From assembly GCF_965641715.1 (NCBI RefSeq), contig NZ_OZ282453.1: a stretch of 64,000 nucleotides of DNA; one strand, written 5' to 3'. Position numbers: made by a program. Below, one piece after another: positions 43,701 through 46,700 of the stretch. This stretch comes from Escherichia coli. Lineage in GTDB: Bacteria > Pseudomonadota > Gammaproteobacteria > Enterobacterales > Enterobacteriaceae. The first letter of the stretch is position 1. Each line of letters starts with the position of its first letter.

Positions 43701-46700
43701 GCGGCACTGGCACTGGTAGCTGCCGCGCTTTTTGAGGACTCTGCAGCGGCAGCACTTTTTGATGCTTCAGTGGCCTTTGTTGATGCCGTTCCTGCGCTGG
43801 AAGTCGCTGACTGAGCCGACGACGCGGCCTGTCCGGCTGACGTGCTGGCTGCGCGTGCTGAGTCCGCAGCATCAGTCGCATGGGTTGCCGCCTCACGGGC
43901 TGATGTGCTGGCATCACTGGCTGACTTCTTCGCGGCTGCCGTGTTCTGTGCCACCACGGACGCGTTACGCGCCACCTCTTCCACCATCAGCTCAAAACGG
44001 CGCAGTGCCTCCGGACGGGCATCATCCTCCGTCATGGCACCGAGAAAATCATTCAGCGTACCGGGTCGGGAATCTTCATACACGGTGATGGTCCCGGCAT
44101 GTGACGGCGGGAATCCTTCCACCAACAGAATAACGCTGTACTGACCGTACTCAACGTCCATGCTGTAACGCCCGGCTTCATCCGGATTTTCTGAGGCCAG
44201 CGTGTTCACCACCACCGTGGTACTGTTACGTTTTGCTTTCAGCTGGATTGTGCAGTTCTGTACCGGTTTTCCTGTGCCGTCTTTCAGTACACCTGAAATC
44301 TTTACTGCCATATTCACCCCACAAAAAAGCCCGCCTGAACCGGCGGGCTGTCATAACACTGTGTTACCTGGCTAATCAGAATTTATAACCGACACCCACG
44401 ATGAAACCGTCAGTGCGCCAGTCACCACTGCCGGAGCCTTCATAAGCGACATCAATGGCCACGGATTCGGTCGGGTTAAACTGCACGCCAGCCCCCCACG
44501 CCAGAGACGTGTTGCTGTGGCGACCGTCATCACTTCCGGTCAGCACGTCGTGCGTTTTCCCCTTGTTATCAGTTACGCGGAGATAATCCCCGGAAAAAGT
44601 CGACACACGGCTGTAAGCCACACCCGCCATCGCATACGCGCTGAACCATTCATTCACGCGCACAGACGGCCCCGCCATCACGCTGAACCAGCGGTTACGC
44701 ACGGAATCTTCATGCCAGCGGGTATCGCTGTAACGGGTCAGCTGGCGATTCTTGTCTCCTGCATAGCTGAACGACGTCACCATCCCCAGTGTGTCCGTAA
44801 ACTCATAACGGTATTTCACGTTAATCCCGTTCAGATCATCGCTGCCGGGGACGTTCGTCGAGGCATGAAGATAGCCCGCGCTCAGCGTGGACTGATGTTC
44901 AGACGCCCATGCAGGCGCACAGGATGCGGCCAGACAAATGGCTGCGGACAAAATGGCGGCATAAAGTTTACGCATAATTACCTCTCGCTTTTCTGCAATA
45001 AAAAAGGCACCATTTCTGGTGCCCTTATCTGGGTTATAAATATTTCAACGGATACTGATACCGGAAGCCGCTTTTTTGGTCACTATCACCGTACAGTCTG
45101 TGATGTTACCTGCACCCTGATTGCCTTTCTGGAAAATCCTGAACTCCAGGGTGACGTTCCCACCACCACTCGGCATATCAATAACCGCGCTGTAACTCCC
45201 GGGAACTGCCCCTCTGGTTTCTCTGGATGCGATTAAGACACCGTTTTTGCGAACTTCAAAACCATAACCCGTGTACCTTGTACCTCCCGGGTTATTACCG
45301 CTCCCCGGATTGTCATACGCCACACCGTTAAAAATAATGGGCGGAATAATGATTTGACGGTCAAAGTTATGATCATCGCTGATGGTGACGGTAACCGTCC
45401 CGTCGGGTGTTTCCGTGTTCCCCCACGTACCGACTTTTTTCGGGAAGGCTTTTGATACAGCTTTAACGAAATCTCCTCTGACCTGGGTCGCCTCCAGCAT
45501 GCCCTTAATCGTACAGTTCTGGTTAATCGTGACATTGTTGAGCGTTCCTGAGTTCGCATTCACACTGCCACTGATATCCGCATTTTTCGCCGTCAGTCTC
45601 CCGTCTGGTGTCAGGGAAAATGCCGGCGGATTTCCACCGCTGGTAATGGTGGGAGCCGTCAGGCGTTTCAGGAACACGTCGTTCATGAATATCTGATCGC
45701 CCTGACCAACAAACATCGGTTTTGTGTTGCCATTCGCAGGATTAACCATCGCAATCCTGTCCGCCGCCAGCAGCACCTGACTCTGCATGCCGTCAGGGGT
45801 GTTCTCAATACCGGCACCAATACCCGCGATATAAAGGCGTCCGTCCTGCATCTGCTGCAGCTTCACAGCCCACATGCTGTTCAGGTTATTATTTGTATCA
45901 ACCTGAACCTTCTGTATCTGCTGAATTGCAGCACTCTGGTCTTCCAGTTTCTTATTGACGGTCTGCGTGATTTCATTGCTGACATCCGTAATGGACGTCC
46001 TGATTTCAGCCAGGTCAGGCGCAAGCTGACCGTTATCAATCTGCGTCCACAGCTCCTGAGCCAGATGGGTTTTCCCTATCTCGCCTTTGAAAAAATCCAG
46101 ATAACCGGATGCATCATCACTCGGCTGACCAACAGCCTCCACGAATGCCGATTTGCCAACGGTGTTCACACTGCGGATATAAAAGTAATAATCATGGCCC
46201 GGTTTGATATTGATACTGGCGGCTATCCAGTACAGCGCCGTGCCAAGATAGCGTGCTGTGGTTTCAACCTGCCTGATATCCGCAATCCGCTTTTCCGAGA
46301 ACCAGAACTCAAACTGTACCGTCGGATCATAAACCGCAAGATGCGGCGTGGCGGTTATCTGAAAATAGCCCGGCGTCAGCTCAATCCGCGACGGCGCTGC
46401 CGGTGCGGCAATCCGGAACGATACCGACGCCGGATCGCCCTGCTGCCCCCACGCATTTACTGCCCGGACTGTCAGCCTGTAGTTCCCCAGCGCCAGTTGT
46501 GTGAAGCGGTAAGTGGTTTCCGTCGTCCGGGCCGTGCTGACCAGCCACTCACTGCCGTCATCCGCTGTTACGGTCAGACGGAGCAGGAAGCTCACGCCCT
46601 TCACCACCTTCGGCGTGTCCCAGCGCGCCAGCACCTGATATTCCCCGCTGTCTGCGGTGACTTCGGCAGTCAGGTGCTGCACCGCTGGCGGCGTGACACC

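Follow-up and report, generated by a model that had tools for sequence, protein, structure and literature searches.

The lambda h434 host-range hybrids are the classical case of an exchange of modules within the tail fibre protein gpJ. In gpJ, hub domains and two FNIII domains are followed by an alpha-helical shaft, then by the central straight fibre, which is a beta prism, and by an Ig-like receptor-binding domain (RBD), the bottom loops of which enter the porin (PMC11101478). A binding cascade leading from the spreading of the RBDs to the flipping of the shaft has been described for two complexes, that of lambda gpJ with LamB and that of the A8 chimera with OmpC. When the 434 gene takes the place of lambda J, the phage binds OmpC (PMC11101478), which is the receptor given for 434 by Hantke 1978, as cited in 10.1101/2022.09.30.509847, and this latter work also reports that swaps of the gpJ C-terminus retarget lambda particles from LamB to OmpC. 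Furthermore, among the lambdoid mEp phages OmpC ranks second in frequency as a receptor, according to PMC11893012, which cites Hernandez-Sanchez 2008.

We have analysed a stretch of 64,000 nucleotides of Escherichia coli DNA (assembly GCF_965641715.1, contig NZ_OZ282453.1), called here the window, which covers the late region of a prophage. A previous sequence-only reading had proposed that the J protein of this prophage joins a lambda-like body to a divergent C-terminal receptor-binding region, so that the phage would use either a different receptor or a different contact surface on LamB. We find that J is indeed a mosaic, and that its RBD belongs to the type carried by phage 434. Taking the evidence as a whole, we hold it to be highly probable that this is a lambda-type J made of three recombined modules, with a 434 RBD that would dock on OmpC and a triggering mechanism like that of lambda.

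Results

The J gene and its neighbours

The genes of the late region to which we refer are the following.

48603..49244, minus strand: tail assembly gene at the gpI position, the ORF upstream of J; its PEC41 counterpart is annotated 'tail assembly protein'
45045..48542, minus strand: J, tail-tip or central tail fibre protein, an intact 3498-nt ORF of 1165 aa plus stop codon
44376..44975, minus strand: lom, Ail/Lom outer-membrane protein (PHROG 108 'Lom', E 2.5e-109), directly downstream of J, as in lambda
41915..44317, minus strand: stf, side tail fibre of 800 aa, matching tail-fibre PHROGs; it ends the prophage genes, with the host ykgJ-like gene and uspF beyond it

The J protein scores 2329.7 bits against the curated full-length family model NCBIfam NF049904 (lambda_TipJ), the cutoff of which is 1950, and the alignment pairs residues 1-1165 of J with positions 1-1163 of the 1163 in the profile. 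J also matches PHROG 31 'central tail fiber J'. Its placement is canonical, 3' of the tail-tip assembly genes that are the counterparts of lambda L, K and I, and 5' of lom and stf, and the gene order at the locus equals that of lambda, of 434 and of the annotated locus of E. coli PEC41. The interval 45045-46100, for which the divergence had been proposed, corresponds to J residues 815-1165 plus the stop codon.

On the plus strand, an ORF of 625 aa (46065-47942) runs antisense within J; we set it aside as a by-product of the gene it overlaps, the coding sequence of which is strongly conserved. Several similar antisense ORFs are found inside stf, and were read as by-products of a GC-rich, codon-biased opposite strand and not as genes. 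Tandem Repeats Finder, run on stf and J, returned zero DNA repeats.

State of the prophage

Isolated Lambdavirus-like phages such as Kati, PhiR34_1, PhiR68_2, mEp332 and ev099 are collinear with the 22-kb head-tail module at 96-97% identity, and Kati, PhiR34_1, mEp332 and ev099 form plaques. The late region is lambda-like and apparently intact. These observations bear on the idea that J might be a relic within a defective prophage, its adsorption function having been lost. Such an idea could draw on the position of the element in the ompN-uspF neighbourhood, which we take to be the locus of the defective Rac prophage in K-12, on the pseudogenised stf and tfa that the related strain PEC41 carries at the same locus, and on the fact that stf is not followed by a tfa gene in the window. 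We consider it quite unlikely, since J is a full-length open frame that the TipJ model matches end to end, the remaining late-region ORFs have the sizes of the lambda late genes, and the collinearity is with phages that form plaques.

The end of the prophage adjoins nifJ-ompN-uspF and a ykgJ-family gene (38700-41915), and this chromosomal flank (nifJ, ompN, uspF and the ykgJ-like gene) matches E. coli at 99.5% identity. We expect the attachment junction in the interval 41638-41915. No tfa ORF was found after stf in the window, where 277 bp (41638-41914) separate stf from the host ykgJ-like gene. The stf gene itself has a lambda-Stf-like N-terminus followed by a long Ala/Ser-rich middle with a GC content of ~0.61, and the Lambdavirus phages that match elsewhere in the module give no coverage of the distal ~310 aa of stf; this distal part finds its best match among phages in the Cyrano tail fibre (75%), and the P1/P7 gpS proteins reach ~39%.

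Module layout of J

Lambda J (NC_001416, 1132 aa) was used as the reference. With domain names after PMC11101478, the J protein of the window divides as follows.

46098..48542, minus strand: residues 1-815, hub and FNIII domains, a lambda/434-like body
45711..46097, minus strand: residues 816-944, variant shaft module (alpha-helical shaft and upper central straight fibre), with 28 extra residues around 836-870
45555..45710, minus strand: residues 945-996, conserved lower central straight fibre (beta prism), containing 'QIFMND'
45045..45554, minus strand: residues 997-1165 plus stop codon, phage 434-type RBD

At the protein level, the body (residues 1-815) shares 97.7% identity with lambda J and 98.3% with 434 J, and DNA identity is ~95.5% over J nucleotides 1-2400. 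At a first joint (J nucleotides ~2400-2460) identity to lambda passes from ~100% to less than 40%, at a second (nucleotide ~2820) it recovers to 87-93%, and from a third (nucleotide ~2990) it falls to 40-60%. The shaft module, residues 816-944, is 38% identical to lambda, 38.8% to 434 and 99.2% to mEp332; its alignment with lambda opens gaps of 21 and 7 residues in the latter, which are the 28 extra residues of the window J. Over residues 945-1000 identity to lambda rises to 94.6%, and the DNA of the prism block is 87-93% identical to that of lambda. The last 155 residues are again divergent, with 38.7% identity to lambda and four gapped stretches, the indels falling in variable stretches. Across the prism/RBD joint the DNA is 98-100% identical to 434 where identity to lambda drops to 42-67%. 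J is a three-module mosaic with sharp joints at the FNIII/shaft and prism/RBD boundaries, and in its C-terminal region two separate divergent modules flank one conserved block.

The earlier proposal that the N-terminal ~800 residues of the 1165-aa protein track lambda is borne out by the identity of residues 1-815, and the identity segments and sharp DNA joints bear out the mosaic with a divergent C-terminus, the mosaic being three-part and not two-part. The proposal of a mismatch to lambda over the last ~350 residues is too strong. Identity over the last 351 is 48.4%, but these residues align throughout and include the near-identical block 945-1000. Similarly, the peptides quoted from this region are present in the J translation, but one of them, of 20 residues, differs from lambda at one residue. 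In the pairwise alignment with lambda J the last 250 residues are 54.8% identical, and the high identity that would mark a lambda-type end was not seen.

Within the conserved block, F952 of the window J (45687-45689, in 'QIFMND') corresponds to lambda F924, mutation of which leads to escape from the Gifsy-1 HepS abortive-infection nuclease (PMC13043305). As the equivalent of F924 is conserved, the window J is predicted to trigger HepS.

Type of the receptor-binding domain

The last 155 residues of J are 94.8% identical to 434 J, with 0 gaps, and 43.2% identical to phi330; DNA identity to 434 across the RBD is 85-100%. A multiple alignment of RBDs resolves a tight 434-type family at 90-95% identity (434, mEp332, mEp460_ev081, 2851, cdtI and an Stx2c phage), whereas identities between the 434-type RBDs and those of the lambda, phi330/YYZ-2008, 1717, Fels-1 and VT1-Sakai types are 38-47%. 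The window RBD is of the 434 type by its high and indel-free identity, lacks the similarity that would be expected of a LamB-type domain, and differs from the phi330 or A8 type (PDB 9wca / phi330) by being 43% identical to it, with indels.

Eight differences separate the two RBDs, written here from the window J to 434: V1074I, R1110K, V1113I, N1129S, R1135K, I1136V, Q1138H and G1143W. Six of them are conservative (V/I, R/K, N/S). The other two, Q1138H and G1143W, are non-conservative and fall close to the C-terminus, in a variable stretch that may touch the receptor; Q1138 and G1143, which are H and W in 434, represent the majority state in the 434-type family, being found in mEp332, mEp460_ev081, 2851 and cdtI.

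Phage phi330, an OmpC-dependent Stx phage (PMC12502783; closest genome WGPS6), was considered as a proxy for the receptor and rejected, its RBD being 43% identical to that of the window. Because the window and phi330/A8 RBDs are separate sequence types, OmpC use is not transferable by homology between them. In its record (PV189401, 17195-20610) phi330 J is annotated from an internal start, as 1042 aa, and upstream of it lies a short ORF that overlaps it; this suggests a frameshift or an annotation split, and the internal start accounts for the low loop residue numbers in PMC12502783.

Structure of the RBD and of the shaft insert

The C-terminal 300 residues of J match solved gpJ chains, namely 9wca 'A8 gpJ 713' (E 9e-99), 8xcj (2e-90) and 8iyk (3e-89), and likewise 8xck (~E 1e-90); the span aligned to 8xcj and 8iyk is residues 866-1164. 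For the last 154 aa, AlphaFold2 gives an all-beta model (pLDDT 79.3), and the top four PDB matches of this model in Foldseek are 8xck, 9wca, 9wcb and 8xcj, at TM ~0.77. These entries are the lambda central fibre, closed and LamB-bound (8xck, 8xcj), and A8 gpJ, closed and OmpC-bound (9wca, 9wcb). Structure prediction of the C-terminal domain, suggested as a check with the sequence-only reading, places it among the solved gpJ RBDs.

The first divergent module begins directly after FNIII-2 in the numbering of PMC11101478, and the 28-residue insert falls at the position of the helical shaft (lambda residues ~836-861, PMC11101478). Hydrophobic residues in the insert follow a 3-4 spacing, with ILMVFA at 75% of the a/d positions against a background of 34%, a pattern that fits four extra heptads in the helical shaft. 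An AlphaFold2 model of residues 790-1010 (monomer, 4-sequence alignment) had a pLDDT of 43.9 and was unusable, a long helix at ~842-886 giving a weak hint; because this model is too poor, we place the insert from PMC11101478 and the heptad spacing.

Relatives and prevalence

The last 351 and the last 154 aa of J were compared by tblastn with 50,697 phage records. For the last 351 aa, 24 records were at least 90% identical, all at full coverage, and this set includes mEp332, Stx2a_WGPS6, several Stx2 phages, Kati, ASU11, PhiR34_1, ev243, cdtI, phi458 and Ayreon; over these 351 residues identity is 94-97% for mEp332, Stx2a_WGPS6, cdtI, Ayreon, ev243, PhiR34_1 and Kati, and phage 434 reached 73.5% in the same search. 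For the last 154 aa, 74 records were at least 90% identical, mEp460_ev081 and 2851 among them, and the rest, lambda included, were below 60%. When J was divided into residues 1-815, 816-900, 901-1010 and 1011-1165, identities to 434 J were 98.3, 29.4, 77.3 and 94.8%, and those to mEp332 J 97.5, 100, 97.3 and 94.8%. K-12 hosts are recorded for mEp332, PhiR34_1, Ayreon and phi458, which carry this type of J C-terminus.

Among 5426 complete E. coli genomes, the 465-nt RBD DNA was found at a coverage of at least 80% in 2089 (~38%), and the full 1056-nt region in 1163. The three-module J is already known: it is common in coliphages, and isolated phages carry the full combination at ~97% identity.

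Discussion

Receptor and adsorption

Because the RBD is 94.8% identical to that of 434, whose reported receptor is OmpC, the most likely receptor of the window J is predicted to be OmpC and not LamB. Of the two options offered by the sequence-only reading, this agrees with the first, a different receptor. The second, that the RBD still binds LamB via a different contact surface, could be defended on the grounds that the fold is that of lambda gpJ and that LamB and OmpC are both trimeric porins. However, identity to lambda is low and the variable stretches carry indels, the RBD is nearly identical to that of 434, and a phage with the 434 RBD binds OmpC and not LamB (PMC11101478), so that we consider this option extremely improbable.

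A 434-like domain may also have shifted its specificity, either to particular OmpC alleles or to another general porin such as OmpF. OmpC is polymorphic, and allele-specific recognition by the window J is possible. Allele-specific recognition of OmpC by gpJ chimeras is documented, chimera 1A2 recognising EDL933 OmpC only (10.1101/2022.09.30.509847), lambda J can evolve OmpF use via few point mutations (discussed in PMC11101478), and two of the eight substitutions relative to 434, Q1138H and G1143W, are non-conservative changes in the variable C-terminal stretch. Yet the window J carries the family majority at both positions, the other changes are conservative, and mEp332, which shares both residues, is recorded with a K-12 host, so that we regard a shift of this kind as improbable and retain OmpC as the predicted receptor.

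In the explanation that we favour, J is the host-specificity protein of a Lambdavirus-type prophage, and homologous recombination would have joined three modules in it: a body of hub and FNIII domains like that of lambda and 434, a longer shaft variant that mEp332, Stx2a_WGPS6 and cdtI also carry, and a 434 RBD. By homology, the trimeric C-terminal beta-sandwich RBD would dock its bottom loops on the trimeric porin OmpC instead of LamB. In irreversible adsorption the RBDs would then spread, the beta prism twist and the helical shaft flip, and the tail tip would open and the DNA be ejected.

Among the papers searched, we found no direct receptor assays for mEp332, WGPS6, cdtI, the PhiR phages, Kati, HannyBb, Ayreon, phi458 or ev243/ev099, and a 2026 receptor-prediction preprint, mainly on the Drexlerviridae GpJ locus and related taxa, yielded no receptor data for lambda-like J. 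A further conjecture, to which we give a low probability, is that the long shaft (28 residues, ~4 nm if coiled coil) and the private RBD substitutions change the reach through O-antigen or capsule, or tune the recognition of OmpC alleles; if this were true, the host range of a long-shaft J would differ measurably from that of 434 despite the common domain type.

Given how widespread the RBD module is (~38% of the complete E. coli genomes, besides many isolated phages), the locus holds no new biology. Its significance is mainly one of annotation, in that OmpC, and not LamB, can be predicted as the primary receptor of the prophage. It is also a clean instance of modules being exchanged inside J, and the same boundaries are relevant to the engineering of gpJ chimeras.

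Comparison with known systems

Lambda gpJ (NP_040600; PDB 8iyk, 8xcj, 8xck), which binds LamB, belongs to the same family as the window J and shares its overall architecture and RBD fold (TM 0.77). It differs in a shaft that is 28 residues shorter and 38% identical, in an RBD that is 38.7% identical with indels, and in its receptor. The J of phage 434 (UMO75362.1 in OL657227; lambda h434 hybrids) shares the body (98.3%), the RBD (94.8%) and the gene order I-J-lom-stf, but has 1137 aa, with a short shaft of the lambda type that lacks 28 residues, and eight RBD substitutions. The phi330 J and the engineered A8 gpJ (PDB 9wca, 9wcb) have the same RBD fold as the window J and a demonstrated OmpC receptor (PMC12502783; title of entry 9wcb), and their RBD is a separate sequence type, 43% identical to that of the window. 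The J of mEp332 (XSB41055.1) equals the window J in length (1165 aa) and shares its three-module build; it is 97.3% identical to the window J overall and 99.2% in the shaft, and differs from it by allelic changes only, including those that leave the RBD 94.8% identical.
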